A stretch of DNA of 64,000 bases. Source: an uncultured Enterobacteriaceae bacterium (GTDB lineage: Bacteria > Pseudomonadota > Gammaproteobacteria > Enterobacterales > Enterobacteriaceae). The stretch covers positions 2,958-66,957 of the forward strand of contig CANRKT010000008.1 in NCBI GenBank assembly GCA_947631255.1, written 5' to 3'. The position numbers and the translations under genes are program-made. Positions 166-21,283 of the stretch are shown piece by piece (position 1 is the stretch's first letter; each line of letters starts with the position of its first letter). The notes beneath the pieces are model-generated. The model was not told where the DNA came from and made no database searches. It saw nothing but the letters and a program-made list of their open reading frames with translations.

Positions 166-681
166 ATGCCATTGTTGGATAGCTTCACCGTAGATCATAC
201 ACGTATGGATGCCCCAGCTGTTCGTGTTGCGAAAACGATGAATACGCCTCACGGCGATACCATTACTGTGTTTGACCTGCGTTTTTGTATTCCAAATAAA
301 GAAGTCATGCCAGAAAAAGGGATACATACACTGGAACACCTGTTTGCTGGTTTTATGCGTGACCATCTCAACGGTAATGGTGTTGAGATTATCGATATCT
401 CACCAATGGGTTGTCGTACTGGTTTCTACATGAGCCTGATTGGTGTGCCAGAAGAACAGCGTGTTGCTGATGCCTGGCTGGCAGCAATGGAAGATGTGCT
501 GAAAGTTAAAGAGCAGAAACAGATCCCTGAGCTGAACGTGTATCAGTGCGGAACCTGGCATATGCACTCTCTGGAAGAAGCGCAGAATATCGCGCGTCAC
601 ATTATTGAACATGGCGTCGGTGTTAACAGCAATGAAGCTCTGGCACTGCCAAAAGAGACGTTGAAAGAACTGCATATCTAG
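166..681 (+). CDS. luxS: S-ribosylhomocysteine lyase LuxS (AI-2 synthase)
   Basis: [14 protein letters not shown]..., HTLEH metal motif, GCRTG. True start is ATG 166 after GGAGG; the ORF-track extension from 82 overlaps micA. Confidence 0.98.
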
Positions 682-711
682 TACAGTGCTACAGACTAAC
701 GATATTTTAAG

Positions 712-746
712 AGGCCCCTTGCAGCATATGCAAAGGGCCTTTTTTT
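712..746 (+). terminator. Rho-independent terminator of luxS
   Basis: AGGCCC-C-TTGCA/GCATA/TGCAA-A-GGGCCT stem followed by a T run. Confidence 0.8.
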
Positions 747-747
747 G

Positions 748-1030
748 GTGTGCCGGGCATAGCGCGTTGCCCGTAAGCTCAACCGGCTGACTCTGGCAGT
801 TAAACGGATGACTCGGAGGTGAAAGTTCTCAACACACTCGGTAAGGGGAAGTGTTAGCTTGTTCACCGCGAGGTGAGTTCCGAAGGACGCTGAAAGCAAA
901 ACCGTAGTAGTCCTAACTTACCAACAGTGCGAAGGGCTGAACATGCTAACCGCAATTAGGATACGGGTACTCGATATCGATTAATAAGACACAAGGATAA
1001 ATAATGGCCGTCACAGCTTAGGGGGTAGAT
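748..1030 (+). mobile_element. Group II intron 5' remnant (domain I region; no RT ORF, no domain V seen)
   Basis: Starts GTGTG (GUGYG 5' boundary) 1 nt after the terminator T run. Contains GGAGGTGAAAGTTCTC, GAAGTGTTAGC, a CACC-GCGA-GGTG GNRA hairpin and TCCGAAGGACGCTGAAAGCAAAACC, in the order I recall for IIC-type domain I. The right end is approximate. Confidence 0.65.
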
Positions 1031-1048
1031 ATTCTCTATCTTACTGTC

Positions 1049-2068
1049 CTAGATAACCGGTTTGATTGAAGACTGGCGGATAATTAAATCACCTTCAACT
1101 TTCATTTTTAATGAGAGTATCGGTTGCTGCCAAATGGTTTTAAGTAAAGTATCTACGGCAAGTTCACCCATTTCGGCATAAGGTAAGTCCACTGAACTTA
1201 ATTCAGGCGTGAGTTCAGAGGAGATATTCTGGTTATCATAGCCAATGACCGCGATATCATCAGGAATGCGTAACCCCTGCGCTAAAATGGCCTGGTAACA
1301 CCCTAGCGCAATATAGTCACTGCTGCAGAATATGGCTTCTGGGCGAGGGGTAAGTTCGAGCAATTCCAGCGTTTTGTTATAGGCTTGTTTTAATGACCAG
1401 TTGGTGACCTGGATATAACGTTCATCAGGGTAAATATCATGATTTATCAGCGCATTTCGATAACCCTGTATCCTATCATTGGCCGCATCCATCCACAGTT
1501 CACCCGCTAGAATGGCAATCCTTGTATACCCTTGCTCTAATAAATGGTGTGTTGCTTTGTAGGCACCAATGGCATCGGCGGGTAATATACAGGGGATGGT
1601 AGGTTGTTCTGGGCTATAACCATTCAATATAACCATTGGGATCGCTAAATCCTGGAACATCGGCACTAACTGACTGGTCATACAGGATGCATAAATTATT
1701 CCTTGGTAGCTACCACTTCTGAGCTCTTGCTCTAACGCGATGCAATGTTCAGGTTCATTTTCTTGATCAAAAATAGCCAGCAACTTATTGTGTTGCCATG
1801 CTGCTTGCTGTGCAGCACTCACCGCTTCAATAAAGGGGTCGTGATTAATTAATCCATTAATGACGAGTGCAATTTTCTCTCTGGCAGCAGGACGTTCTGC
1901 CGTTTTATGGATATAACCCATTTCTTGAGCGATCAGCTGTACTTTCTCGCGAGTATCATCGGCTAATTTGATGCTATATGATCCATTTAAGACTAATGAA
2001 ACTGTTGATTGTGAGACGCCCGCCTTAGCCGCAATGTGGCTCATGGTCACCTTGTTTTTCTTGCTCAT
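1049..2068 (-). CDS. LacI/GalR-family transcriptional regulator
   Basis: N-terminal HTH VTMSHIAAKAGVSQSTVSLVLN, periplasmic-binding-protein-like effector domain, IPDDIAVIGYDN motif. Confidence 0.95.
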   Translation of the reverse strand: MSKKNKVTMSHIAAKAGVSQSTVSLVLNGSYSIKLADDTREKVQLIAQEMGYIHKTAERPAAREKIALVINGLINHDPFIEAVSAAQQAAWQHNKLLAIFDQENEPEHCIALEQELRSGSYQGIIYASCMTSQLVPMFQDLAIPMVILNGYSPEQPTIPCILPADAIGAYKATHHLLEQGYTRIAILAGELWMDAANDRIQGYRNALINHDIYPDERYIQVTNWSLKQAYNKTLELLELTPRPEAIFCSSDYIALGCYQAILAQGLRIPDDIAVIGYDNQNISSELTPELSSVDLPYAEMGELAVDTLLKTIWQQPILSLKMKVEGDLIIRQSSIKPVI

Positions 2069-2263
2069 TATTAGCTCTTTAATTACTAATGTGGGTTAAG
2101 TTTCGTCTCTGATAGTAACAGATTTCAGTCAATATAATGGTGTGTGACTTCCACCTGCATTGACTCCACATACTTCGACATTACTTCTCCCTCTGATTAG
2201 ATTCTTCACGATATCGTATAAGATATTGATATTAAATTGTTTTATTTCCGTCTGAAAAAATTT

Positions 2264-2279
2264 CGTGAATCAGCTCACC
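2264..2279. promoter_or_regulatory. Putative CRP site upstream of the glycosidase operon
   Basis: CGTGA-ATCAGC-TCACC versus consensus TGTGA-N6-TCACA. Confidence 0.5.
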
Positions 2280-2309
2280 CTTAAGCTATTGCGACGTTGT
2301 TATTATCCC

Positions 2310-2331
2310 ATTAGCTAATATATTAGCTAAT
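2310..2331. promoter_or_regulatory. Putative LacI-family operator (two ATTAGCTAAT palindromes; 20-bp perfect palindrome 2311-2330)
   Basis: TTAGCTAATATATTAGCTAA is a perfect inverted repeat ~30 bp before the glycosidase start, in the divergent regulator/operon spacer. Confidence 0.6.
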
Positions 2332-2361
2332 AAGACTAATAAACATTAGGGGTGAAGAGCA

Positions 2362-3426
2362 ATGAAGCAATGGTCTGCAGAAAAAGCATGGGAATGGCAT
2401 AAAAAACAGGGATGGCTATGTGGTTTTAACTATCTGCCACGTACTGCTGTTAACTGGACCGAAATGTGGCAACGCAGCACTTTCGATCCTGAAACCATGG
2501 CTCAGGAACTCGGCTGGGCTGCTGAGAGCGGATATAACACGTTACGCACCAATTTACCTTTTGTCGTCTGGCAACACGACAGAGATGGATTAATTTCTCG
2601 TATTGAACAGTTTCTCGATATTTGTCACAAAGTGGGTATTAAAGTGATGTTAACCCCGATGGATGACTGTGGTTTTTCAGGTGACCATCCTTATATCGGG
2701 CAGCAGAAACAACCAGTATCTGGTTTACATAACAGTCAGGCCGCAGCGAGCCCGGGTCGTAATATTGTTATGCAGCCTTATTTATGGGGACAGGTAGAAA
2801 GTTATATCAAAGATATCATTGGTCATTTCTCTCAGGATGAGCGTATTGCAATTTGGGATCTTTACAACGAGCCCACTAATCGCATGATATTCACATTAAC
2901 CGGTGAAGAAGCTTTCGATCCAGAACTGGAAAAATATAGCCACCAGTTAATGGAGAATGCGTTTGAGTGGGCACGTGAAGTTAATCCATCACAACCACTT
3001 ACTGTTGGTGCATGGCATATCGCAAATATTCTGGATCTACAGGCTCCTATTTATGAGCACCCGACAGACCGTCGGGCATTAGAGTTATCCGATGTTATTT
3101 CTTACCATGCTTATGTACCGTTAGATCTAATGCATAAAGCAATTGAAATTCTGAAAGAATATAAACGCCCCTTGTTGTGTACTGAATGGTTAGCTCGACA
3201 TGCAGAATCTAAAATCCATGAGCAGTTACCTTTATTTAAGGCTGAAGGTATTGGCTGCTATCAATGGGGGCTTGTAAAAGGTAAAACACAAACTCATATT
3301 CCATGGCCAGAAATAAAACGCATCGATGAAAATCATCATGAGCGTTGGTTCCATGATGTCTTAACTGAAGAAGGCATTGCCTATGATCCAGACGAAATAG
3401 CGATGATAAAAAGTTTAATAAAATAA
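2362..3426 (+). CDS. Clan GH-A (GH5-like) glycoside hydrolase, cytoplasmic
   Basis: WDLYNEP acid/base motif, LCTEW nucleophile motif, W..MW....FDP..M..ELGWA N-terminus; no signal peptide. Confidence 0.8.
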
Positions 3427-3516
3427 AAAATTCCCGCTATAGCTTTAAAAATAAATAGATTGCTATAACGGGAGTGAATAATTTTACTTGTATCCTATAT
3501 CATATAAAGGAAAAGA

Positions 3517-4881
3517 ATGGACATTAATCATTCTAGTGAAAAAATCCCAATGCGAGAACTCGCTTCTTATTTTGGGTATGGGGTAGGCCAATGCTTTAGT
3601 TTCGGTCTGGTGGGAACATTTATTCTTTTCTTTTACACCGATATCATGGGTATCTCACCCGTTGCCGCGAGTGTTATCTTCTTGATTGCCAGGGTCTGGG
3701 ATGCAGTGCATGATCCATTGATTGCTGGTCTGATGGATACCGTTAATATGCGGCGTGGTAAATTCCGTCCATACTTATTTGGTGCGCCTTTTTTAATTTT
3801 CATCGTCACGGTCATTGCATTTTATAATATTGAAGCCAGTCTGATGACGAAAACAATTTATGCAGGTGTAACCTATATTTTATGGGGGACATTATATGCT
3901 ATTTCTGATATTCCTTTTTGGTCAATGAGTACGGTCATGACCGATGAGCCGCAAGAACGGGCGAAAACGGCAACCTGTGCTATGCTGGGCGTCAATGCGG
4001 GTATTGGTGCTACCATGGTACTGTTTCCTTATGTTAGCGGATTTTTTGCCGAAAACAGTTCAGACAAAGGCTACCTTGCGGGCGTTATTACCTTGATGGT
4101 ATTCGGTTTAATACTGATGCTAAATGGCTTCTTTAATACTAAAGAGCGCGTAAAAGTCACGGTGGGCGAAAAAGTCACGTTAAAACATACATTCATTGTT
4201 GTTTGGCAAAACAAGCCGCTATTCTTTATTCTTAGCGCCTTCTTTATGAATGTGTTTTCCAATATTGTTAGCGCATTTTATATCTTCTTTTTCACCTATA
4301 ATATGAGAGATGCTGATCTCGTTTCAGTCATCGGTTTCATTACTTTTACCTGTGCATTAGCTTGCCTGGCTACACCATTTTTAACCCGACATTTTAAAAA
4401 GAGAGACTTGTTTATTGCTCTCTGTGTTCTTGAAATCATTGCGCGTATCGGCTTCTGGTTTACGGGGTATCATAATGTCGTCTATGTGATGATTTGGCTC
4501 ACTGTCATTACCGCTATTTTTATGATGACTAACCCTCTTATTTCAGCAATGATCGCAGATACCGTTGAGTATTCTTACTACCATACAGGTAAACGTTGTG
4601 CCGCTATCACTTTTTCGGGACAAACATTTGTGGGTAAACTGTCGGTTGCTGTGGCCGGGGGATTGTCTGGTTTAATTCTCGCAGTATTAGGCTATGTTCC
4701 TAATGTGGAACAGTCTGAGTGGACATTAAATGGGTTGTTCTTCTGTATTTCTCTGCTACCAGCATTGGGTGCAATAATTCGTATCCTGATTATGAGGAAA
4801 TATAAATTCACCGAAGATGAGCATGCTATTCTTCGTGAAAAATTGAAACAAGGTGAATTCCATCCATCGGTTAATAATTAG
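3517..4881 (+). CDS. MFS glycoside-pentoside-hexuronide (GPH):cation symporter
   Basis: ARVWDAVHDPLIAGLMD, RGKFRPY, SDIPFWSM, MIADTVEY motifs typical of MelB/XynP/GusB-type transporters. Confidence 0.92.
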   Translation: MDINHSSEKIPMRELASYFGYGVGQCFSFGLVGTFILFFYTDIMGISPVAASVIFLIARVWDAVHDPLIAGLMDTVNMRRGKFRPYLFGAPFLIFIVTVIAFYNIEASLMTKTIYAGVTYILWGTLYAISDIPFWSMSTVMTDEPQERAKTATCAMLGVNAGIGATMVLFPYVSGFFAENSSDKGYLAGVITLMVFGLILMLNGFFNTKERVKVTVGEKVTLKHTFIVVWQNKPLFFILSAFFMNVFSNIVSAFYIFFFTYNMRDADLVSVIGFITFTCALACLATPFLTRHFKKRDLFIALCVLEIIARIGFWFTGYHNVVYVMIWLTVITAIFMMTNPLISAMIADTVEYSYYHTGKRCAAITFSGQTFVGKLSVAVAGGLSGLILAVLGYVPNVEQSEWTLNGLFFCISLLPALGAIIRILIMRKYKFTEDEHAILREKLKQGEFHPSVNN

Positions 4882-4910
4882 AACTGTTCATTATTATTTT
4901 ATCATCTCGA

Positions 4911-4950
4911 AAAGGCTGGCGCAGGTCATGACTTACCTGCGCCAGTCTTT
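4911..4950 (+). terminator. 16-bp hairpin ending the glycosidase-transporter operon
   Basis: AAAGGCTGGCGCAGGT-catgactt-ACCTGCGCCAGTCTTT. Confidence 0.7.
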
Positions 4951-5044
4951 ATCCATGGTGTTCAAAATTCGCGGGTATGGATACAGCCCAATCCCCAATG
5001 TCCCGACTGAAAATATGAAAAGAGGGAAATCGTCGCCTCAAAAT

Positions 5045-5320
5045 TGTCAGTTCTTTACCATCAGTGAATGCTGTTATCGCTCTACGCGGAAAATCAGCAA
5101 AGCGATTTTATGCATGCTCACCTGTCAGATAGGCGTTCTGTGCGTTTGCTGAATACCATTGATAATTTCAATCGAGAAGCACTGGCTATTGAGGTTGATT
5201 TTTCACTCCCGGCTATTCGTGTCATAAGAACGCTGGAGCAGATCATCGAATGAATGGCAGGGAGTATGCCACAAAATGGCAATGGGTCTATAATCATGGG
5301 TGACCGAATAAGGCATGCGG
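5045..5320 (+). mobile_element. Degenerate IS3-family (IS407-group-like) transposase remnant
   Basis: Three collinear OrfB pieces: [12 protein letters not shown] (N-term), [49 protein letters not shown] (integrase core) and ATKWQWVYNHG*PN (C-term), separated by deletions and stops. Confidence 0.8.
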
Positions 5321-5435
5321 AGTTATTCTACTTTCTGCATAAGCTATAAGGTGAAGATAATTTTTCTAATTCTCAGCATTTCTCTCTGGTTCATAATTGT
5401 TATGCTAAGACAGTATCTCATTCAATCGGTTAACT

Positions 5436-6200
5436 ATGTCAACAGAGCTGTTGTTTGATTTCTCAACTCGCCCGATGGTGCCTTTTGCCCAGGATTATCA
5501 ACATGGTGCAAAGGAACCCTGGCATAGCCATAATTGTGCGCAGCTCTTGCACACGCTCAGCGGTGTGGTACGTGTAGAAACCGACCAGGGACATTGGATT
5601 GTGCCGCCGAGCCGGGGGGTCTGGTTACCTGCTGGCACACGTCATCGCTTGCAGGCGACCGGTGATGTGGCCGCCAGAACCTTGTTTATCGATCCTTTTG
5701 CCAGAGCGGATCTGCCTTCTGTTTGTCAGGTGGTACAGATTTCGGCTTTGCTACGTGAACTGATCATTAATGTTCTGACACTTCCGGAACGTTACAGTGC
5801 CGGTAGCAGAGAAGAGCGAATTTATGAGCTAATTCTCGATGAGATCCGGGTGATGGATACCTTACCTTTTAACTTACCGGAACCTCAGTCAGAGGCGTTA
5901 CTGTCGCTGTGCCGTCAGATTCAGGCACAACCGGGAATTCCCTGGACGACGGCGCAAGCAGCCCAAAAAATTGCTGTCAGTGAAAGAACCTTGTTGCGTC
6001 ATTTTCAGCAACAGACTGGCCTGGCATTCAGTGAGTGGGTCAGGCGGGCGCGACTGATGGAGGCTCTTAGTCTGCTGGCTCAGGGACAATCAGTGCTCCG
6101 GGTGGCTCTCGAATTGGGTTACGAGAGTCCCGGAGCCTTCAGTGCAATGTTTCGTCGCACACTGGGTGTGTCACCCAGCGATTACTTTACGCATCAGTAG
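5436..6200 (+). CDS. AraC-family regulator with cupin sensor domain (NimR-like)
   Basis: WHSH..AQLL cupin N-terminus; C-terminal double HTH with VALELGYESPGAFSAMFRRTLGVSPSDY. Confidence 0.93.
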   Translation: MSTELLFDFSTRPMVPFAQDYQHGAKEPWHSHNCAQLLHTLSGVVRVETDQGHWIVPPSRGVWLPAGTRHRLQATGDVAARTLFIDPFARADLPSVCQVVQISALLRELIINVLTLPERYSAGSREERIYELILDEIRVMDTLPFNLPEPQSEALLSLCRQIQAQPGIPWTTAQAAQKIAVSERTLLRHFQQQTGLAFSEWVRRARLMEALSLLAQGQSVLRVALELGYESPGAFSAMFRRTLGVSPSDYFTHQ

Positions 6201-11318: not shown

Positions 11319-12407
11319 TTATTTCATGAAGGGACGAGTTAATAAACCCAGTGGGCCGGTGGTATACCAGCGATGATTGCCTTTGGAGCGTGCATCACGA
11401 CCAATAGACTGAGTTAAGCGATCGAGAATGATGGCAAGGATGACAATCCCGACACCACCGACGGTAGCCAGTCCCATATCAAGGCGACCAATGCCGCGCA
11501 ACACCATCTGACCTAACCCACCAACAGCAATCATTGACGCAATAACCACCATTGACAGAGCCAGCATCAGTGTCTGGTTAACACCTGCCATAATGGTTGG
11601 CATAGCCAGTGGTAATTGAACTTTAAACAGCATCTGACTCGGACTGGCACCAAATGAGCGTGCAGCCTCGATTAAGTCTGCTGGTACTTGTTTAATACCG
11701 AGTATGGTCAAACGTATAATCGGTGGCAGTGCAAAAATAATGGTAACCACTACGCCTGGTACATTACCGATACCAAACAGCATGACAATCGGCACCAGAT
11801 AAACGAAGGCCGGTGTCGTTTGCATCGCATCAAGCAATGGACGAACCACTCTGGCGGCCCGGTCACTACGTGCCAGCCAAATACCTATTGGCAGGCCTAT
11901 TATTGCGCAGAAGAATAACGACGTAAGCACCAGAGCCAGCGTCACCATGGCTTGCGACCAGGCACCAATCGCCCCGATAGCAATCAGTGATATCAGCGTT
12001 GCTACGCCCATGCCAAAGGTTGACATCTGCCAGGCAATCAGCGCGAAAACGATGATTGCGACGACCGAGGGCATACCCAGCAGGGCCTGCTGAAAGCCAC
12101 TCAGAATATAATCGACAGGAACCCGTATTCCCTGAAACAGAGGGCGAAAATGGGTCACTACCCAATCGATCCCTTCGGTAACCCAGCTATCAAGCGGGAT
12201 CAGCGTTTTATGAAAGGGATCTAGAATGTTGAAAGGTTCTACTGGTGCGCTGGAGGTTGAGGACAGCCAGTCACTCGAGCTACTGGCAGCATCAGCCCCT
12301 GGTCCCGTAGCGGCATCTGTGGCAGGACTTCCCCATGCATCCTCGGCACCTGCAGTACTTTGTACCGTTTCACTTCCGGTATCCCACGGATTTGCTGTAT
12401 CACTCAT
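11319..12407 (-). CDS. proW: Glycine betaine/proline ABC transporter permease
   Basis: [22 protein letters not shown] loop. Confidence 0.97.
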
Positions 12408-13602
12408 TATTCGTTCCCTCGCGATCTAAAGCCTGCAATAACACCCCTTTCGAGATAACGCCGATATACTGTTTATTCTCTCCGATGACTGGCACTGCAC
12501 AGTCAGACTGACCAACATGGGAGAGTAATTCACTGAGTGGCGTATCTGCAGCGACAGGCGCTGGACTTTCAAGAAAAGCAGATTCCAGTCCCTGGCCTGT
12601 GGCAAGAGCATTTTTGAGCGAATCGGTAGAAACAATGCCGAGGAACTTTTGGTCACGTTCGATAACATAGCCATATTCACGGTCTGCATCCTGCAATAAT
12701 TTCAGTGCAGAGCGCGGACCAAAGCCAGCGGTTTTACGTAGCAGGCCAGTAGGATTACGACGAGAAATATCCTTCGCACTAAAGACCTGACTAATATCCA
12801 CACCTCGGAAGAAGGTGCGTACATAATCATTGGCCGGATTATTAAGAATTTCATCCGGCGTACCGATCTGAATAACCTCTCCGCCTTGCATAATAGCAAT
12901 TCTGTCACCAATTCGCATGGCTTCATCGAGGTCATGAGAAATAAAGACAATTGTGCGTTGATGTCTGGCTTGCAGGTTAATTAATTCATCCTGCATTTCA
13001 GTTCTAATTAATGGGTCGAGTGCTGAGAAAGCTTCATCCATCAATAATATATCTGGATTAATCGCTAATGCTCGAGACAGGCCAACACGTTGCCGCATTC
13101 CGCCAGAAAGTTCATCCGGATAAGCATGGGCATAATTTTCCAGGCCAACTTGGCGAAGGGCATCTAATGCTTTTTCCTGGCGTTCTGCTACAGGAACACC
13201 GGCCAGCTCCATACCGAATGCCGCATTATCCAGCACCGTCATATGTGGCATCAGAGCAAATGACTGGAAGACCATTGCAATCTTATTTTTGCGAACCTCA
13301 CGAAGCTCCGCATCAGATATTTTCGCAATATCGACACCGTCTATCATTACTTGACCACGGGTCGGTTCAATCAGGCGATTGAGAAGGCGAACCATGGTGG
13401 ATTTTCCTGAACCGGAGAGCCCCATGATGACAAAAATCTCGCCTTCTTCAATGGCCAGACTGGCGTCTTTAACGCCCAGCGACAGACCTGTTTTCTCCAG
13501 CAGCTCGCTCTTCGATATTCCTTTATCGATATATTTAAATGCGCGCTGAGGATTTTCGCCAAATATCTTATATAAATTCTTTACTTCTAATTTAATTGCC
13601 AT
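12400..13602 (-). CDS. proV: Glycine betaine/proline ABC transporter ATPase
   Basis: [32 protein letters not shown]-terminal CBS domains. Confidence 0.97.
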
Positions 13603-13671
13603 GCAACAAACATCTTCCTGTGTTTTGATCTATCTATACTTATTCCCGATAAGAAATAATTTAAGCTCTCT

Positions 13672-13699
13672 ACCCTAACATATCGAAAATCTGAGACAA
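13672..13699 (-). promoter_or_regulatory. proU P2-type sigma70 promoter
   Basis: Minus strand TTGTCT-N16-TAGGGT; the E. coli proU P2 promoter is TTGCCT-N16-TAGGGT. Confidence 0.75.
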
Positions 13700-13905
13700 C
13701 CCTCAATTTTGATATTATAAAATATCCACGCTTTTAATTTTGGGCGTCATTCCCCGGTATCAAAGGGCTGAGGCCGTATAATTACCGGTGAATATTTTTT
13801 GATATTACTGAGTGTCAGAAGCGATATTTTGTGAGGTGAGAGCAGATTCGGGGGATATGTTTAGCAATAATCTTTACGTGATCGGTTGTTTTTATTTCGC
13901 CGATT

Positions 13906-13959
13906 GATAACTGATATGGAAATGCTAATTATCAGAATAATGATAAGTATGGTCATAAT
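13906..13959. promoter_or_regulatory. Fur-box-like in-phase hexamer array
   Basis: GATAAC TGATAT GGAAAT GCTAAT TATCAG AATAAT GATAAG TATGGT CATAAT; 13936-13954 matches GATAATGATAATCATTATC at 14/19. Confidence 0.4.
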
Positions 13960-14746
13960 ATGACACGAAAAAAAACAGCTATGGTGCTGGCCTGTTTCTT
14001 CTATGTGCGTTGAGCATGACGCATAGCCCGGCCATGTATTCAACCCGGAGAGCAGAATGATAAGCCATGTCCACGCTCAATGAATGTGGTGATAACTTAA
14101 TCATGTCTCTCCGCTGATTTAGAGTAACCTAACGCCTTAGGATTCAATCGTTTTAAGCGGTGCCTCAGGTTTGAAATTTCTCTTTCTATTCTCTGTATAT
14201 AAAACTTAATCACCACATGTTTTTGTTTTGGGGACACTGGGGATAATTAATTGACTGTGCTTTAGAATTAATACACTCCTCATGCTTAAAGTGACTTTGG
14301 TATATAAGAGGTGGTTTCTCATTTATATATGACTATTACCCAGATAGATATAGGGTATAGGTTAAGAATGAAATCACATAAAGAAAAAGTATGAATTTCT
14401 TATTACACACGCATTGGTCTTTTAACGTTATGATTTTATTTGTTTTTTATGAATTCCTGAGGTGTGATGAAAATGCGCTTAATTCCATGGTTTTTACGTG
14501 AGTGATTAATTGTTATTGATGAATTAAATTGGTTTGGGATTGTATTTAATCAATGAAGAGAGGCTTTAATATGGCTTGTTAGTACATCAGTGGTGAATGA
14601 TGCTTTTCTTGTCACTGAATACCTTATAAAGGAGGGTTAAAATACCCTAATGTTTTTATTATATTAGTAAACAATATCAGATTGTTAAAGGTTTTTTTGG
14701 CAAGAAATGCTTAATTCATTGTTTATTGTAAGGTATTGCCATGAGG

Positions 14747-14762
14747 TGTGATTTTTATCACG
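14747..14762. promoter_or_regulatory. Putative CRP site
   Basis: TGTGA-TTTTTA-TCACG (9/10 core positions). Confidence 0.6.
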
Positions 14763-14770
14763 TAATATTT

Positions 14771-14788
14771 CTGTCATACACCTGTCAA
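14771..14788 (+). promoter_or_regulatory. Pho box (PhoB site)
   Basis: CTGTCAT-ACAC-CTGTCAA, 11-bp direct-repeat periodicity, 45 bp upstream of the ATG. Confidence 0.8.
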
Positions 14789-14833
14789 ATTTCCTTGTTC
14801 TGATATGCGCAACAAAATGACAGGGGATTGACC

Positions 14834-15811
14834 ATGAGTAATAAAAATGTGCTTGCAGCATTGCTGCTAACTATTATGAGTGCATCGGCTGCTGCAAAAT
14901 CCACATTGAGTCTCTATACCAGTCAGCTTAATGACGATGCGCAGATGACAGTCAACGCCTTTGAAAAAGCGCACCCAGATATTGAAGTGAAATGGATCCG
15001 CGACGGAACCACAAAGCTGACTGCACGCTTGCAAGCTGAACTGGCTGCGGGCGCTGCCACGCCGGATGTGCTGCTGCTGGCAGACAGTGTGACTATGGAA
15101 TCCCTGAAGAATCAAAATCTGTTAACGTCTTATAAATCACCGCAAACGGCACGCTTTGATAGTGCGCTGTATGATAAAGACGGTTATTACTCTGGGACGA
15201 AACTCATTACCACCGGGATTGCTTACCACAGTAAAGCCCCGGTAAAACCTGAGTCATGGGACTCTCTGCTCAAGCCAGAAGTCAAGAATATGACCACTCT
15301 GCCAAGTCCGCTGTATTCCGGAGCAGCACAAATTCACCAGGCCGCAATCATGAACAACCCGAAATTGGGTTGGGCTTATTATGAAAAATTGAAAGAAAAC
15401 GGTGCAATGCCGCAAAGTGGTAACGGTGCGGTAATGAGTGCCATCGCCTCTGGTAGTAAAGCTTATGGCGTGCTGGTGGATTATATGGCTATCCGTGAAA
15501 AAGCGAAGGGCGCACCAATTGAGTTTTTATTTCCAAAAGAAGGGGTTAGTGTTGTCACCGAACCGGTTGCCATTATGAGCAACAGTAAAAATCCAGAAGC
15601 GGCCAAAGCTTTTGTTGATTTTGTGCTATCACCGGAAGGTCAGCAACTGGTGCTTGAGCAAGGTTTTTTACCCGCAGATGCCAGTCTGCCTGTTCCGCAA
15701 GGCTTCCCGCCTCGTGACAGTATCAAGCTGATGCCACTGGATGCAGCTAAAGCGCTGGCTGATACCGAAACCAACAAAAAACGTTTTTCTGATTTGTTCG
15801 GTAATCGCTAA
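14834..15811 (+). CDS. ABC transporter substrate-binding protein (FbpA/AfuA-like family)
   Basis: Signal peptide, LSLYTS...PDVLLLAD, FPKEG...EPVAI, AKAFVDFVLSPEGQ; ATG 14834 after GGGGA. Confidence 0.9.
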   Translation: MSNKNVLAALLLTIMSASAAAKSTLSLYTSQLNDDAQMTVNAFEKAHPDIEVKWIRDGTTKLTARLQAELAAGAATPDVLLLADSVTMESLKNQNLLTSYKSPQTARFDSALYDKDGYYSGTKLITTGIAYHSKAPVKPESWDSLLKPEVKNMTTLPSPLYSGAAQIHQAAIMNNPKLGWAYYEKLKENGAMPQSGNGAVMSAIASGSKAYGVLVDYMAIREKAKGAPIEFLFPKEGVSVVTEPVAIMSNSKNPEAAKAFVDFVLSPEGQQLVLEQGFLPADASLPVPQGFPPRDSIKLMPLDAAKALADTETNKKRFSDLFGNR

Positions 15812-15834
15812 TTCACTTTCACTGACAATCAGAT

Positions 15835-15872
15835 AGCCAGTAATAGCGGATAACAGACTATTACTGGTTTTT
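15835..15872 (+). other. Intercistronic stem-loop after the binding-protein gene
   Basis: AGCCAGTAATAG...CTATTACTGGTT followed by Ts; typical attenuating/stabilising hairpin in ABC operons. Confidence 0.6.
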
Positions 15873-15902
15873 ATCGTATCTCGTTTTGGAAGTTGTTAAG
15901 TC

Positions 15903-17615
15903 ATGACAAGTATGACAATGCATCAGAATGCCAGTAATCACTCCATGAAAGGGCTACTCTGGTTATTATTGTGTCTCGTTGCATTACTGAGTTTATTACC
16001 CAGTTTACGCCTGCTGCTTTCAGCTTTAATGGACTGGCGGCAGGGCAGCGACAGTAGTCTGTGGCGAGTATTGAATAACCAGGCCACCTGGGTAGCGCTA
16101 TATCACAGTATTTATACCAGTGGGTTAGGTACTCTTATTTCTTTGCTTCTCGGCAGTTTGTTTGCCTTTTGTCTGGCGCTGACCAATATCCGTATGAAAC
16201 AGATATGGGTCTTTTTGTTTATGCTGCCAATGATGATCCCTCCCCAGGTCACTGCACTAAGTTGGTTACAACTATTTGGCTCCAATAGCATCCTACTGAA
16301 CAGTCTTGGCCTGGCACCGGAATTTGGTAGTGTTAATCCACTTTATTCCCCTGAAGGGATCGCACTGTTACTGGGTATTCAGCACGCACCTCTGGTCTTC
16401 CTGGCGTTACGCACGCAATTGCAATGTTTACCGAAAGAGCATATTGAAGCTGCGCGCTTAAACGGTGCTTCGCTGTGGCAAGTTTTTTTCGATATCGTGC
16501 TGCCACTTTGCCGTACTGCACTCTGGGGGGGAGCGACGATTGCCTTTGTTTCTGCGCTGGGGAATTTTGGTATTCCGGCGATGCTCGGCATCCCTATCTC
16601 TTATTTTGTCCTGCCTATCTACATCTATCAGGCGCTATCCAGCTTTGGGCCGTCGATGATCAACGAAGTGGCTGCTCTGTCAGTGCTGATGGGCATTCTG
16701 GCGATTGCTATTGTGACCCTACAGGCGCGCATGCAACGGCGATACGCTTTGCCATTAATTGGTATGGCAGGCCGTTCGCTAGCATTTACTTTAGGTAAAT
16801 GGCGTCTGGGTGTAGAAGTGCTCATGGGGCTGGTATTATTTGTCATTCTGGTTGCTCCCTTGCTGGCGCTAATTGCGACCTCACTGGTTCCTACCATGGG
16901 GGTGCCGCTCAATGGGGATACCCTCACTTTCGCCGCCTGGCACAGCGTTTTTGATGTAAAAAGTTCGGCATGGCGAGCACTCACTAACAGCATGGTACTG
17001 TCGGTATCGGCGGCCATGGTATTGCTGGTACTCAGTCTCCCCCTGGCCTGGTTGTTGGTGCGCTACTCCAGCCGTCCACTGCGCTGGCTGCATAGCATGA
17101 TAGATATTCCTTACACGTTGCCGGGTGTCGTGCTGGCTATCGCCTGTATTCTATTGTTTTCCCGTCCATTACCCATTTTAGAAATAAGCCTGAGTGGAAC
17201 GCTCACGATTATCTTTATTGCCTATCTGGCGCGTTTTCTCACCGTCTGTTTAAAACCGGTGCACAGCAGCATGATGCAACTGGACCCGGCGATGGAAGAG
17301 GCTGCCAGCCTGGCCGGAGCGCATTTCTCCCGGCGTTTGACTGATATCGTTTTACCTCTGCTGGCACCGGCAGCCTTTGCCGGTGCTCTGCTGGTGTTTT
17401 TGACAGCGGTGAATGAACTGACCGTTTCTGCTCTGTTATGGAGTGCAGGGAAAGAAACTCTCGGGGTAGTGATATTCAGTCTGGATGAAAGTGGTAATAA
17501 GGTACTGGCATCCGCCATTTCGGTATTCGTTGTCGTATTAGTTGCAATGGTGATGTTGCTTCTGAGTGCATTTAGTAAGTATTTACCAAAAGGAGTTATC
17601 CCATGGCAGAGCTAA
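15903..17615 (+). CDS. ABC transporter permease (duplicated domain, FbpB/AfuB-type)
   Basis: Two EAA loops (EAARLNGAS, EEAASLAGA); 570 aa, multi-TM. Confidence 0.92.
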   Translation: MTSMTMHQNASNHSMKGLLWLLLCLVALLSLLPSLRLLLSALMDWRQGSDSSLWRVLNNQATWVALYHSIYTSGLGTLISLLLGSLFAFCLALTNIRMKQIWVFLFMLPMMIPPQVTALSWLQLFGSNSILLNSLGLAPEFGSVNPLYSPEGIALLLGIQHAPLVFLALRTQLQCLPKEHIEAARLNGASLWQVFFDIVLPLCRTALWGGATIAFVSALGNFGIPAMLGIPISYFVLPIYIYQALSSFGPSMINEVAALSVLMGILAIAIVTLQARMQRRYALPLIGMAGRSLAFTLGKWRLGVEVLMGLVLFVILVAPLLALIATSLVPTMGVPLNGDTLTFAAWHSVFDVKSSAWRALTNSMVLSVSAAMVLLVLSLPLAWLLVRYSSRPLRWLHSMIDIPYTLPGVVLAIACILLFSRPLPILEISLSGTLTIIFIAYLARFLTVCLKPVHSSMMQLDPAMEEAASLAGAHFSRRLTDIVLPLLAPAAFAGALLVFLTAVNELTVSALLWSAGKETLGVVIFSLDESGNKVLASAISVFVVVLVAMVMLLLSAFSKYLPKGVIPWQS

Positions 17616-18631
17616 AGCTGGAACAGCTTAGCAAGGTATTTGGCGACCAGACTGTTGTCCGGGATCTCAATCTGACTATCCCTCAGGGAGCCTTCACTGC
17701 ACTACTGGGGCCGAGTGGCTGTGGTAAAACCACGACGTTACGTATTCTGGCTGGACTTGAGGAGCTCAGTGGCGGGCGTTTATTGCTGGGTGACAAACTA
17801 CTGGCAGATAACATAACTCATACCCCCCCTGAGCTGCGTGATATGGGGATGGTATTCCAGTCTTACGCTCTGTGGCCCCATATGACGGTCGCAGAAAACG
17901 TCGGCTATCCATTAAAACTGCGGAAGGTCAAAGGGGCTGCGCGGCAAAAACAAATAATGAATGCGCTGGATATTGTTGAACTAGGGGCTTATGCCGATCG
18001 TTCTCCCCAGGAACTCAGTGGCGGACAGCGCCAGCGTGTTGCCCTGGCACGCTGCCTGGTTTCTGAACCGAAAGTGGTACTACTGGACGAGCCGCTGGCT
18101 AACCTCGACAGACACCTGCGTGCCACCATGGAACAAACCTTCCGTGATTTTCATCGTCGAACTGGCGCTACCTTTGTCTATGTAACACACGATCAGGCTG
18201 AAGCGATGGCGCTGGCCAGTCATATCGCCGTGATGCACAAAGGCGAGTTAATGCAGTGGGGCACACCTCAGGATTTATATCAGCGTCCACAACATGCCTG
18301 GGTGGCGAGTTTCATTGGCAAGGGGAGTATCTTGTCATTAGCGACTCCCGCAGATGTACAGCATCTTGATAATCAGGTACTGCATGGCAGTTTTAGCGAC
18401 GGGACTCCTTATGGAATGCAACCGGTGCTCGTACGCCCGGAACATGTTCAGATAACCGATACTGGGCTGAGTGCCAGAGTGGAAGGATGTATATATCAGG
18501 GAGAGCGCTATCTGGTTGATTTGCGCCTGTCTGATGGCCAGCCACTCACTGCTTTTCATCATGCCTCTTTGCAACAACAGCAGAATGTTTGTGTGCGCTT
18601 ACATCAGGGCTGGCGTCTGGAGGCCGCATGA
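17603..18631 (+). CDS. ABC transporter ATPase (FbpC/PotA-like)
   Basis: GPSGCGKT, LSGGQRQR, LLDEP, YVTHDQ; overlaps neighbouring genes. Confidence 0.95.
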   Translation: MAELKLEQLSKVFGDQTVVRDLNLTIPQGAFTALLGPSGCGKTTTLRILAGLEELSGGRLLLGDKLLADNITHTPPELRDMGMVFQSYALWPHMTVAENVGYPLKLRKVKGAARQKQIMNALDIVELGAYADRSPQELSGGQRQRVALARCLVSEPKVVLLDEPLANLDRHLRATMEQTFRDFHRRTGATFVYVTHDQAEAMALASHIAVMHKGELMQWGTPQDLYQRPQHAWVASFIGKGSILSLATPADVQHLDNQVLHGSFSDGTPYGMQPVLVRPEHVQITDTGLSARVEGCIYQGERYLVDLRLSDGQPLTAFHHASLQQQQNVCVRLHQGWRLEAA

Positions 18632-19686
18632 AAATAGAGATTATCAGCGGTTTGAATCGTAAAGCACCGGCGGCCATTTTACTGAGTGCTGAAGGTCAGC
18701 GTATTTTGCTGGATGCAGGAGGGGCGCTGGAACCTGATGAAGCATTATGGCAAGTTCCAGAGGATATCGATGCGGTATTACTCAGCCATGATCATGCCGA
18801 TCATATTGCAGGACTCAACCGTTTACCCCGTGAAATACCGGTTTATTGTAGCAAGGTGACTGCCCAAGCATTACCCGCGGGTCATAATGTACGGTGTATT
18901 GATGTCAGGGGGACCTTCCGGATTGGTGAGATAACAGTGACTACCGGGAGCTGTGGTCATGCCTATGGGGGGGTCTGGTTTCATCTTGATATTGATGGTG
19001 GAGTATTTTATAGCGGTGATATCAGTATGGAGTCGGCACTGTTTCATTTTGACCCGCCACCCCCCGCCCGTATTGCTCTGATCGATGCTTCTTATGGTCT
19101 ATATGATGTTCCTCAGCAGCAGCAACGGGATAAGCTACGGCACTATTTATTGCAACCCAGTTTATGCCCGGTTCCCCCTTCAGGTCGTGCGGTTGAACTG
19201 GCTTTGCTTATGGCACGGGACAATCAGCCGAATATCGCTATGGATGAGAGCTGCCGTACCATGATGGAACAAATGGCCTGTCAGAATGATGGTAGCCTGA
19301 GGGCGAATGTGGCAGCGGAACTGCAATCTCTGTTACAAGTCTTGCCGCTATTTTCTACTGAGGCTCCTTTGATTCTGGCTTCTGATCCTGATGGCATGAG
19401 TGGAATGGCGGGGATATTACGGGAACGGCATGATTTTCATCATCGTACTTTATTTACCGGTCATCTAAATCAGCTCTCTTATCAGCAGTGGCTGGCTGGA
19501 GAAGTCGATTTTTGTCGCTGGAATGTCCATCCTACGCTGAGCTGCTTAAAAAAACTGGTGACCATGCTGTCATGTCAGTACTTCGCGCCGCTGTTTACGC
19601 CGCTGGATTGTCCGGTGCAATGGCAGCAGGAATTACAATGTGAAATCATCACTCATTCGACGATTGAAATGGAATTATGTCAATAA
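18628..19686 (+). CDS. Metallo-beta-lactamase-fold hydrolase, beta-CASP-like
   Basis: LLDAG, SHDHADH, GHAYG, YSGD, IDASYG, PVPPSGRAVEL, WNVHP; ATGA overlap with the ATPase stop. Confidence 0.85.
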   Translation: MKIEIISGLNRKAPAAILLSAEGQRILLDAGGALEPDEALWQVPEDIDAVLLSHDHADHIAGLNRLPREIPVYCSKVTAQALPAGHNVRCIDVRGTFRIGEITVTTGSCGHAYGGVWFHLDIDGGVFYSGDISMESALFHFDPPPPARIALIDASYGLYDVPQQQQRDKLRHYLLQPSLCPVPPSGRAVELALLMARDNQPNIAMDESCRTMMEQMACQNDGSLRANVAAELQSLLQVLPLFSTEAPLILASDPDGMSGMAGILRERHDFHHRTLFTGHLNQLSYQQWLAGEVDFCRWNVHPTLSCLKKLVTMLSCQYFAPLFTPLDCPVQWQQELQCEIITHSTIEMELCQ

Positions 19687-20234
19687 TTTGTAAGCCTTTT
19701 GTTTTTGTGCGTCACGGCGAGACTCCCTTAAATCGTGATAAGTTAATCGGCGGTAGTACCGATGTTCCGCTGACGGATACCGGCAGGCGGCAGGCAGAGG
19801 CCGCGCAACCTTTACTGGCACGTTTTCACTGGAGTGGTATCGGCGTTAGCTCATTACTGCGTGCTCAGCAAACGGCTCAACTGGCGGTGCCTGGCGGTAT
19901 TTACACCACCCTCGATGGGCTGCGTGAACGTGACTGGGGCAACTTAGAAGGTTTGCCTGGAGCGGCGATGACTCCTTATGAAGAAACGCCCCCGGGAGGA
20001 GAAAGCTGGGATACCTTTCTTGGCAGAGTCACGACAGCGGTTAATTCGCTATTGAGTGAGTTTGAGTGTCCATTAATCGTTGCGCATTCAGGCGTTTTCC
20101 GCGTACTGAACTATTACGCTTTTGGTTCTCCTTACGGTAACCGTATTGGTAATGTCGAGCCGATGTGGATATTACCCGGAAAAATTCCAGAGGAGTGGCG
20201 TATTATGCCGTTGGAACAGCGGGATAACCTCTAG
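19677..20234 (+). CDS. Histidine phosphatase superfamily protein
   Basis: FVRHGET..N, LRERDWG, VAHSG. Confidence 0.92.
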   Translation: MSIICKPFVFVRHGETPLNRDKLIGGSTDVPLTDTGRRQAEAAQPLLARFHWSGIGVSSLLRAQQTAQLAVPGGIYTTLDGLRERDWGNLEGLPGAAMTPYEETPPGGESWDTFLGRVTTAVNSLLSEFECPLIVAHSGVFRVLNYYAFGSPYGNRIGNVEPMWILPGKIPEEWRIMPLEQRDNL

Positions 20235-20285
20235 TCATATTTGAACAGCCCTGCACAGGAAAAGATGGTGGAGACATTTACCGAT

Positions 20286-20559
20286 TAAGCGCGTAAAGCC
20301 TCACCCAATACGTGCGGGGATATAAGCGTGCGGTTGATGAAACTGATATGTGTAAAACATGAAGCATGCATATCAATACCGTTTTTATCCGACATCTGAA
20401 CAGGCTGAGCTTCTGGCTCAGACGTTCAGCTGTGTGCGCTTTGTCTATAGCTCCTCCTTCACGTCTACCAATGCCTACAACGAAAGACAGGAGAAACTCC
20501 CCTATGCGACATCAGATAAAAAACTCATGTCCTTAAAACAGCAGCCGGTGTTCGTCTAA
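20286..20559 (+). mobile_element. tnpB: Truncated IS200/IS605-family (IS1341-type) element: left end plus first 66 codons of tnpB
   Basis: MKHAYQYRFYPTSEQAELLAQTFSCVRFVY is the TnpB N-terminal HTH. It is preceded by GCGTAAAGCCTCACC...GCGGGGATATAAGCG, resembling a decayed left-end hairpin. No RuvC domain follows. Confidence 0.8.
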
Positions 20560-20578
20560 AAAACGTCCTCTTTCAGAA

Positions 20579-20624
20579 AATGTTATTTGATAACATTAAT
20601 AATCGCATGTTATAACATAACAAT
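20579..20624. promoter_or_regulatory. Two tandem Zur boxes
   Basis: AATGTTAT-TTG-ATAACATT (20579-20597) and CATGTTAT-AAC-ATAACAAT (20606-20624), directly before zinT. Confidence 0.8.
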
Positions 20625-20647
20625 CAGTAAAAAGAGGATCGTAAAGA

Positions 20648-21283
20648 ATGAAAAAAACAGTACTGGCTCTGGGAATGTCTCTTCTGCTGTCATCGGTACA
20701 GGCATTTGCTCATGGCGACCACGGTAAACCGCTATCTGAAGTTGAACGTAAAGCCAGTGAAGGCATATTTGATGATAAGTCTGTGCAAGATCGTAAACTT
20801 TCTGACTGGGATGGCGTCTGGCAGACAGTATATGGTTATTTGCAAGATGGTAGTTTAGATCCGGTGCTGGAGAAAAAAGCGAAACAGGGTCAGAAAAGCG
20901 TTGCTGAGTACCGTGCTTATTACGAGAAAGGCTATGCCAGTAATGTTGATATGATAGGTATTGAAAATAATGTGATGGAGTTTCATATCGGTAAGGAAAC
21001 CAGTTCATGCAAATATGATTATCAAGGCTATAAAATTTTACATTATCCATCAGGAAAGAAAGGGGTTCGCTACCTTTTCACATGTACAGATAAACAATCA
21101 GTCGCACCAAAGTATGTGCAGTTTAGCGATCATACTATCGCCCCACGCCAGTCACGGCACTACCATATTTATATGGGGAATGAGTCCCAGGAAGCGCTGT
21201 TAAAAGAGATGGATAACTGGCCAACATTCTATCCTTACAACCTGACGAAAGAACAGGTTGTCGATGAAATGCTGCACCATTAA
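20648..21283 (+). CDS. zinT: Periplasmic zinc-binding protein ZinT (YodA)
   Basis: Signal peptide, [33 protein letters not shown]. Confidence 0.95.

Follow-up and report, generated by a model that had tools for sequence, protein, structure and literature searches.

A candidate Pho-regulon operon combining an ABC importer, a compact β-CASP metallo-hydrolase and a histidine phosphatase in Enterobacteriaceae and other Proteobacteria

The Locus and Its Gene Products

The operon described here was found in an uncultured Enterobacteriaceae bacterium, on contig CANRKT010000008.1 of assembly GCA_947631255.1. A stretch of 64,000 nucleotides (nt) of that contig (positions 2,958 to 66,957, forward strand) was analysed; the whole stretch is called the window, and positions are counted from its first letter. 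Five genes encode a substrate-binding protein, a fused double permease and an ATPase, which together form an ATP-binding cassette (ABC) importer, followed by a metallo-β-lactamase (MBL) hydrolase and a histidine phosphatase (Table 1). The operon probably belongs to the Pho regulon and scavenges phosphorus from an organic phosphate that would be imported intact, then cleaved and dephosphorylated in the cytoplasm.

A preliminary description of this DNA had noted five co-directional genes, the last four overlapping, behind a Pho box. The gene calls and an exact match to the Pho-box core bear this out. The overlaps among the last four genes are 13, 4 and 10 nt long, which argues for translational coupling. 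Orthologues of the MBL hydrolase begin with MKIEI in the family alignment, fitting the start chosen for its gene. The binding-protein gene is set apart from the permease gene by a 91-nt spacer that holds a stem-loop with a perfect 10-bp stem and a U5 tail (RNA fold -25.4 kcal/mol, z = -2.58). A consensus terminator scan did not pick up this structure because its stem is AT-rich. It is possibly a partial terminator or an mRNA stabiliser that would favour an excess of binding protein. A permissive E-value scan of 13400-20800 with Rfam matched nothing, which argues against a known riboswitch or leader.

The N-terminus of the binding protein is, by inspection, of the Sec type (MSNKNVLAALLLTIMSASAAAK). 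The MBL protein starts straight at its first β-strand, and the catalytic RHG of the phosphatase is already at residues 12-14, so neither enzyme shows an apparent signal peptide by inspection, as had been claimed before.

Table 1. Features of the operon and its surroundings in the window
Feature	Position	Strand	Details
Conserved cassette (promoter and five genes)	14662-20242	+	megablast match to Enterobacter plasmids
Pho box CTGTCAT-ACAC-CTGTCAA	14771-14788	+	candidate PhoB site; exact core match
Candidate -10 hexamer TGATAT	14801-14806	+	12 nt 3' of the Pho box; putative, read from the sequence
Substrate-binding protein gene	14834-15811	+	325 aa; ATG start, in-frame TTG at 14828
Stem-loop CCAGUAAUAG...CUAUUACUGG then UUUUU	15837-15872	+	in the spacer between binding-protein and permease genes
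Fused double permease gene	15903-17615	+	570 aa; 2x BPD_transp_1 (Pfam)
ABC ATPase gene	17603-18631	+	342 aa; ABC_tran and C-terminal TOBE_2 (Pfam)
MBL hydrolase gene	18628-19686	+	352 aa; Lactamase_B_2 (Pfam); ATG overlaps ATPase stop
Histidine phosphatase gene	19677-20234	+	185 aa; His_Phos_1 (Pfam)

The Pho Box and Promoter

The sequence CTGTCATACACCTGTCA, at 14771-14787, is the sole exact match to CTGTCAT-N4-CTGTCA in the window, where about 0.002 such matches are expected by chance (64 kb, both strands; our own arithmetic). The box starts 63 nt 5' of the binding-protein ATG and ends 45 nt before it. The candidate -10 hexamer is a weak match to the consensus, as expected of an activator-dependent promoter, and no canonical sigma-70 promoter overlapping the Pho box was found. 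The block ATTTCCTTGTTCTGAT at this hexamer is kept in the promoter alignments of enteric orthologues.

Related loci have the same arrangement. Most of 17 loci have a Pho-box-like site on the same strand, 63-92 nt 5' of the binding-protein ATG, and in 10 of the 17 its score is equalled by at most 3.7% of random 300-nt windows of the same locus. For example, the Maritalea promoter carries a perfect Pho box, CTGTCATTTAGCTGTCAT. Enteric promoters were compared in a four-promoter alignment, in a second alignment of five loci, and with the promoter of Citrobacter sp. JGM124. The core GTCATA-N4-TGTCA and the ATTYCCYTGTT block that follows are invariant across the enteric promoters, and the flanks diverge. 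The MBL proteins of the enteric loci with the invariant core are just 61-93% identical to that of the window. In the five-locus alignment, a degenerate first half-site is found only in a Kosakonia locus that has kept the transporter genes alone. We infer from these sites that the operon belongs to the Pho regulon and would be induced by PhoB.

Gene Order in Related Loci

A scan of species-representative genomes found at least 12 true orthologous loci, with no enteric one among those listed; the enteric contexts come from separate look-ups. The order binding protein-permease-ATPase-MBL-histidine phosphatase is found in at least 18 loci of Gamma- and Alphaproteobacteria, and nine of the 12 loci listed by the scan keep it. 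Among the Enterobacterales it occurs on Enterobacter plasmids and in Citrobacter sp. JGM124, Brenneria, Phytobacter, Pseudescherichia and Siccibacter. Outside the Enterobacterales this order is found in Wohlfahrtiimonas, Billgrantia, Nitrincola, Marinomonas, Marinobacterium, Maritalea, Thioclava, Epibacterium, Phaeobacter, Pacificibacter and Pseudooceanicola. The MBL gene lies directly 3' of the ATPase gene in all 20 of the other loci that have both. Both a Pho-box-like site and the two enzymes are conserved in most homologous loci; their absence there would have refuted the preliminary description.

The five-gene system first described is therefore conserved, but the form in the window is a trimmed one. 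Fuller loci add a DeoR/GlpR-type repressor and a small HAD phosphatase of the polynucleotide kinase-phosphatase (PNKP) type. The full seven-gene form is found in Pseudescherichia, Siccibacter, Marinomonas, Marinobacterium, Nitrincola and Pacificibacter; in Pseudescherichia and Siccibacter it lies between metE and ysgA-udp. The Brenneria and Phytobacter loci are without the HAD gene. Vreelandella and Halomonas sp. (loci L005 and L006) have no histidine phosphatase, and there the HAD gene directly follows the MBL gene. Two loci, in Kosakonia sacchari (L060, 9001-12710) and in CP011077 (L063, 7001-10710), consist of the transporter only. Each has a binding protein of about 80-84% identity, and the repressor, MBL, histidine phosphatase and HAD genes are all absent. 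The Kosakonia locus occupies the same metE-ysgA-udp site as the full locus of Pseudescherichia and Siccibacter.

The neighbourhood differs in a few organisms. In Alcaligenes pakistanensis (L003, 5312-10009) an MBL orthologue of 44% identity occurs with no ABC transporter. Before it come the genes of a NIF3/DUF34-like protein and of a membrane protein with a Gate ('nucleoside recognition') match under the Pfam cutoff (27.2 vs 29.6 bits), and a convergent Y_phosphatase3 gene follows. This may be a non-homologous replacement of both transporter and phosphatase that repeats the transporter-MBL-phosphatase theme. In Thioclava arctica (L008, 9793-11517) a secreted PF04185 phosphoesterase, of the phospholipase C/acid phosphatase family, is encoded directly after the operon, which suggests a phosphorus-scavenging neighbourhood.

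The Cytoplasmic Enzymes

The MBL hydrolase had been called β-CASP-like in the preliminary description, and matches of both fold and profile now place it more firmly. An AlphaFold2 model of the protein (predicted local distance difference test score, pLDDT, 93.3; predicted template modelling score, pTM, 0.91) was compared with PDB entries by Foldseek. The best 50 matches listed are all β-CASP nucleases, with CPSF73, TTHA0252, IntS11, Ysh1, archaeal aCPSF, RNase J and Cas14 among the types, at E values to about 1e-18 and query TM scores of 0.63-0.83. The family profile matches aCPSF, Ysh1 and CPSF73 at E 1e-16 to 1e-15, in an alignment that spans DASYG (D153) and the CASP-domain helix PVPPSGRAxE. 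At the level of predicted fold and profile the enzyme is a true, compact β-CASP protein.

The metal-binding residues are well conserved. An alignment of 22 family members shows no variation at D29, D55, D58, H59, H111 and D131 and at least 90% conservation at H54 and H56; in a single member, P0087, motif 2 is degenerate. The family also keeps D153, the motif A acid, as well as PVPPSGRAxE and RWNVHP (H301). The two-domain fold is common to this enzyme and the β-CASP nucleases CPSF73/Ysh1, IntS11, aCPSF, TTHA0252, RNase J and SNM1/Artemis, and so are MBL motifs 1-4, D153 as the acid of motif A, the PVxxxGRxxE helix and, on a tentative assignment, a His at motif B (H301). In contrast to those nucleases, it has a shortened CASP domain, lacks KH and C-terminal domains, and is encoded within a transporter operon behind a Pho box. 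With 352 residues it is well short of the PDB matches, whose catalytic modules have 430-460 or more. Its family forms a small group of its own, with about 117 clusters at 50% identity (E < 1e-30) in a set of 1.84 billion representatives. The enzyme is presumed to be a cytoplasmic phosphodiesterase that acts on a diester or cyclic diester bond.

The histidine phosphatase is a branch 1 member of its family (His_Phos_1, 115.7 bits vs a cutoff of 21.7, E 2.7e-33). Its nearest PDB entries are zebrafish TIGAR and an α-ribazole-5'-phosphate phosphatase. It reaches no NCBIfam equivalog cutoff; CobC, for example, gives 81 bits vs 162.9.

The extra HAD protein of the fuller loci, missing from the operon in the window, has 150 residues and belongs to the PNKP phosphatase family (HAD_PNKP, PF25109). 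It aligns over its full length with the phosphatase domains of T4 polynucleotide kinase (T4 PNK) and Pnkp1 at E 1e-15 to 1e-10, and has their DxDGT nucleophile motif and C-terminal GDF. Unlike T4 polynucleotide kinase and Pnkp1, it stands alone and has no kinase domain.

Enzymes of these families typically take part in the healing of RNA ends and in RNA decay, and the N-terminus of the MBL protein gives weak matches to Pfam Anti-Pycsar Apyc1. The β-CASP enzyme and the phosphatases might on this basis be an RNA-processing, repair or defence module that happens to lie beside an unrelated transporter. That is very improbable. The enzyme genes overlap the start and stop codons of the transporter genes, the order is kept across two proteobacterial classes, and a single Pho-box promoter precedes the operon. 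A ligase, kinase or Hen1 partner is missing, and the PADLOC defence models matched neither the enzymes nor the binding protein and gave generic ATPase matches only.

The Transporter and Its Binding Protein

In Pfam the binding protein matches SBP_bac_8, SBP_bac_1, SBP_bac_11 and SBP_bac_6. Its closest PDB entries are 8x1a, AfuA (4r72) and P5PA (6wce). The family profile of the binding protein matches AfuA and P5PA at E 1e-26 to 1e-28, with FbpA structures far lower; pairwise comparison with the solved relatives gives E values of only 8e-20 to 2e-14. On these matches it is a cluster-D member of the AfuA/P5PA/PhnS2 group. We know of no Pho box or linked hydrolases in AfuABC or P5PA operons.

Database names would make this an importer of ferric iron of the FbpABC/AfuABC type. 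The names in source records include 'iron(III) transport system substrate-binding protein' and 'Fe(3+)-binding periplasmic protein', and the SBP_bac_6 and SBP_bac_11 matches agree with such names. The preliminary description had placed the motif VDYM at the site of the two FbpA iron tyrosines and had inferred an organophosphate ligand, and the alignments fit both points. The motif is V215-D216-Y217-M218 and aligns with H205-D206-Y207 of AfuA. The Tyr-Tyr position of FbpA falls on V215, D216 and Tyr or Phe at 217, and at this last position, where iron binding would call for a tyrosine, most of the 17 orthologues have Phe. With the iron-tyrosine positions replaced, iron binding is unsupported. 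No convincing Fur box accompanies the operon, which has a Pho box instead: the best match to a Fur box is 13/19, in AT-rich DNA, and is equalled by about 11% of random windows. The nearest solved relatives, AfuA and P5PA-type proteins of Actinobacillus and Citrobacter rodentium, were likewise mis-annotated as parts of iron transporters and have been re-assigned from iron binders to organophosphate binders (PMC4546632, PMC8427247). Uptake of iron is therefore hardly credible.

An importer of 2-aminoethylphosphonate (2-AEP) or another phosphonate, of the PhnS2T2U2 type, has to be considered as well. The best NCBIfam models are PhnS2 for the binding protein (152.7 bits vs a cutoff of 392.75) and PhnU2 for the permease (170.7 vs 593.25), the ATPase scores 303.6 vs 457.7, and the plasmid copy of the permease is annotated 'putative 2-aminoethylphosphonate transport system permease'. 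All these scores are far under the equivalog cutoffs. No C-P cleavage gene domain, of the phnW, phnX, phnA or phnZ type that would be expected, is found in the 20-odd loci examined, and the linked enzymes are P-O esterases. A phosphonate is a very poor candidate for the ligand.

AfuA-type and P5PA proteins bind hexose or heptose phosphates and pyridoxal phosphate (PLP) (PMC4546632, PMC8427247). The ligand contacts of AfuA (S37, G38, T60, S148, G149 and T150; Y103, H205 and Q269) were mapped by sequence alignment only. Its phosphate-binding loops are partly retained in kind, as G58-T59-T60 and S162-G163-A164. Other positions differ in this remote homologue: Thr60 of AfuA has become an invariant Asp84, the ring-binding His205 an invariant Val215, and Ser147 a Tyr. 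An alignment of the 17 orthologous binding proteins, from enterics to Rhodobacterales, has a mean column identity of 68%, and such very high conservation argues for one common ligand.

A Probable Second Layer of Control

Clustering of the flanking open reading frames (ORFs) shows that the fuller loci carry a divergent repressor gene with HTH_DeoR and DeoRC domains. The best NCBIfam models for the repressor are of GlpR and below cutoff (331): PRK10906 gives 157-170 bits and haloarchaeal GlpR 145. Two kinds of motif accompany it. In the alphaproteobacterial loci with the repressor (L007 and L009-L012) a TTCGWWCGAA palindrome occurs at about -25 from the ATG, and all its copies in the 17-kb locus sit in the promoter. 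The gammaproteobacterial promoters have ACGAAAR repeats, with a 21-nt spacing in the Halomonas-type, Marinomonas and Marinobacterium loci. In L005, L006, L057 and L058 these repeats lie at about -82 to -148 from the binding-protein ATG. Enteric chromosomal copies have one ACGAAAR at -22/-23, 3' of the candidate -10 hexamer. Nitrincola has the only repressor-containing locus without the exact motif, and it has related GCGAAAR repeats.

The palindrome and the repeats are candidate operators of the DeoR/GlpR-type repressor. In loci without the repressor gene they are absent from the promoter, except in Kosakonia, which has a copy at -23. Since the presence of the motifs follows that of the gene, the ancestral design would be a dual one, with PhoB activation and a repression relieved by the substrate. 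In the promoter of the operon in the window, for example, CAACGAAAAC has become CAACAAAATG. The lineage of the window thus appears to keep the Pho arm only, with repressor and operators lost.

Known Analogues

Two well-studied systems combine the import of an intact organophosphate with a cytoplasmic diesterase. The likeness is a functional analogy and not homology: genes for importer and esterase and sites for the regulator are found in one unit. In E. coli ugpBAEC-ugpQ is a Pho-regulated system for the uptake of glycerol-3-phosphate and glycerophosphodiesters in phosphorus scavenging. It has a Pho-box promoter, an ABC importer for an intact organophosphate and, at its 3' end, the gene of a cytoplasmic phosphodiesterase. 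Its binding protein is UgpB-like and its diesterase is a glycerophosphodiester phosphodiesterase (GDPD), whereas the present operon has an AfuA/PhnS2-like binding protein and a β-CASP MBL enzyme. The present operon differs also in its single fused permease, its dedicated phosphatases and, in the fuller loci, the DeoR-type repressor.

The second system is acc of the Agrobacterium Ti plasmid. There AccR is a repressor of the DeoR family, AccA is an Opp-like cluster-C binding protein, AccF is of the GDPD type, and the phosphatase gene that follows, accG, encodes an inositol-monophosphatase-like protein. Reportedly (Kim et al. 2008, J Bacteriol), the acc operon is induced by phosphate limitation as well. 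No component of acc (AccR, AccA-E, AccF, AccG) is orthologous to one of the present operon, and acc is confined to Agrobacterium plasmids while the present locus spans many marine and plant- or animal-associated Proteobacteria. In acc an ABC importer is followed by cleavage of a sugar phosphodiester to sugar and sugar phosphate by cytoplasmic AccF, and the sugar phosphate is the effector that releases AccR (PMC4526662). As a functional analogue acc seems closer than ugp.

The preliminary description had also stated that no characterised pathway has this gene set. A full-text literature search found no paper on it, so the statement stands for the genes; the logic, as ugp and acc illustrate, has well-studied analogues. 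What appears to be new is the combination of a β-CASP diesterase, a PNKP-type phosphatase and an AfuA/PhnS2-like transporter; import followed by a cytoplasmic diesterase is the known part.

Proposed Pathway and Substrate

In phosphate starvation phosphorylated PhoB would bind the Pho box, which takes the place of a -35 element, and activate transcription. The periplasmic binding protein would capture a small organophosphate, and the fused permease and ATPase would import it. In the cytoplasm the β-CASP metallo-hydrolase would cleave a phosphodiester or cyclic phosphodiester. The histidine phosphatase would then free inorganic phosphate (Pi) from the resulting monoester, joined in the fuller loci by the PNKP-type HAD 3'-phosphatase. 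In the full version the divergent DeoR/GlpR-type repressor would make control specific to the substrate as well, presumably as the sensor of a sugar-phosphate intermediate. The version in the window, without repressor and operators, would respond to Pi alone.

The families of the β-CASP and PNKP-type enzymes have nucleic-acid phosphates as their substrates, and for that reason nucleotide-derived esters are tentatively favoured here: dinucleotides and short oligonucleotides, or nucleotides with a 3'-phosphate or a 2',3'-cyclic phosphate. Such compounds are products of nucleases of the RNase T2/I/A and micrococcal types. The further proposal, that in phosphate starvation the ABC importer is dedicated to carrying nucleic-acid breakdown products whole into the cytoplasm of these Gram-negative bacteria, with a miniaturised β-CASP nuclease and phosphatases releasing all of the phosphate, is conceivable and somewhat doubtful.

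Several observations weigh against a pathway of this kind. Some Rhodobacterales loci have a single TGTCA half-site only. In the MBL protein, secondary-structure register and a weak, non-significant alignment with CPSF73 put H301 at motif B and F323 at motif C. Motif C is His in the RNA branch and Val in the DNA branch of the β-CASP enzymes, and here it is apparently an invariant Phe that tentatively replaces the zinc-ligand His of CPSF73. The C-terminal half of the family gives marginal matches only to PDB sequences, which makes the assignment of motifs B and C tentative. With F323 in place of the His the catalytic chemistry may differ, and one may ask what completes the second metal site. All MBL members examined are acidic (pI 4.8-6.6) and show no sign of a long nucleic-acid-binding surface, a weak hint that cannot tell one kind of substrate from another. 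AfuA-type binding proteins have small pockets. The repressor most resembles GlpR, which senses glycerol-3-phosphate, and not DeoR proper. Finally, Kosakonia and CP011077 keep the transporter without the enzymes, so that the compound may be usable without the MBL protein, and these loci suggest a monoester as the imported compound.

Some of these points would fit a sugar or polyol phosphodiester, such as a glycerophosphodiester, a teichoic-acid or capsule fragment or an opine-like sugar diester, handled by the same logic of import, cleavage and dephosphorylation. The β-CASP enzyme would then yield a polyol or sugar phosphate that is both the inducer, through the GlpR-like repressor, and the substrate of the phosphatase. 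The best models of the repressor, the sugar phosphates and PLP bound by the nearest solved binding proteins with their small pockets, and the acidity of the MBL proteins all agree with this, and acc sets an exact precedent for logic of this kind (PMC4526662). On the other side, the accessory HAD enzyme is specifically of the PNKP 3'-phosphatase type, and the GlpR scores are far under the cutoff. To our knowledge every characterised β-CASP enzyme acts on RNA or DNA, with which the lists of fold and profile matches are consistent. In E. coli and its relatives, moreover, the niche is already served by Ugp and GlpQ. A sugar or polyol diester is thus rather unlikely, if less so than the remaining alternative.

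That alternative is the import of a phosphomonoester (a sugar phosphate, vitamin phosphate or nucleotide), as by AfuABC or P5PA, from which the phosphatases alone would free phosphorus, with the MBL protein doing something else, for example as a lactonase-type or other hydrolase of the organic moiety. The transporter-only loci, the partly retained Ser/Thr/Gly phosphate loops of AfuA and the apparent loss of the motif-C His speak for it. It is unlikely all the same: the MBL gene is coupled to the ATPase gene by the 4-nt overlap and adjoins it in each of the 20 other loci noted above, with the two transporter-only loci the only ones that lack it, the HxHxDH/H/D metal site is conserved in the MBL family save for the one degenerate member, and the AfuA residues His205 and Thr60 are Val and Asp in the binding protein.

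Genomic Setting and Mobility

The copy in the window is chromosomal, with proVWX upstream and zinT and a CitAB/DpiAB-like two-component pair downstream. Cluster mates (at least 90% identity) of the housekeeping proteins encoded at 12400-13602 and 20648-21283 are found in Citrobacter sp. JGM124, Klebsiella sp. BIGb0407 and an uncultured Cedecea. With such discordant genus names the lineage is probably a poorly classified one within the Enterobacteriaceae; exact matches to its own proteins came from metagenomic or Logan contigs only. Citrobacter sp. JGM124 has the repressor-less five-gene form beside zinT, with an MBL protein 77% identical to that of the window, which argues that the repressor-less form is old in the lineage.

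The same DNA is found on plasmids. Positions 14662-20242 are 90.7% identical to DNA on four plasmids of Enterobacter cloacae/hormaechei (megablast, query 363-5943 of window 14300-20600), namely OW849205, OW849236, OW849498 and NZ_CP059418 (loci L053-L055), of human or hospital origin. There the cassette is flanked by insertion sequence (IS) elements and Tn7- or Tn3-type transposons. Among 5,426 complete E. coli genomes no match to the cassette DNA was found. On this comparison the promoter and the five genes are a mobile nutrient-scavenging cassette, and its mobility on hospital Enterobacter plasmids suggests a selectable fitness benefit.

The edges of the cassette have features of their own. 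A 66-codon ORF at 20359-20559 (+) has as its first 31 residues the N-terminal helix-turn-helix of an IS200/IS605 TnpB (PF12323, E 1e-14). This truncated TnpB remnant lies directly 3' of the cassette, where the homology to the Enterobacter plasmids ends (20242). On the other side, between proV and the cassette, 13603-14661 is about 1.06 kb of AT-rich DNA (about 35-38% GC) that includes the proU regulatory region, and its sole ORF of at least 60 aa is one of 60 aa at 13861-14043 (-). Accession numbering suggests about ten more genes at the equivalent place in Klebsiella sp. BIGb0407.

Significance

If the proposed function is correct, the operon would be an unrecognised and phylogenetically broad member of the Pho regulon, found in enteric, plant-associated, insect-associated and abundant marine Proteobacteria. 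Current annotations of its genes as iron, polyamine or 2-AEP transport, 'ribonuclease' and 'cobalamin phosphatase' would be mis-annotations. The MBL enzyme would give the β-CASP fold its first metabolic role, in nutrient scavenging. The dual Pho and DeoR promoter of the fuller loci, with its clear operator motifs, offers a regulatory model that is ready to be tested. Uptake of nucleic-acid fragments, if it occurs, would give the cell a private route through the cytoplasm, as an alternative to that of periplasmic nucleotidases followed by Pst. More generally, the operon may reveal dissolved organic phosphorus, possibly in the form of nucleic-acid fragments, as a pool from which bacteria draw intact compounds, and this bears on phosphorus cycling in the sea and in soil.

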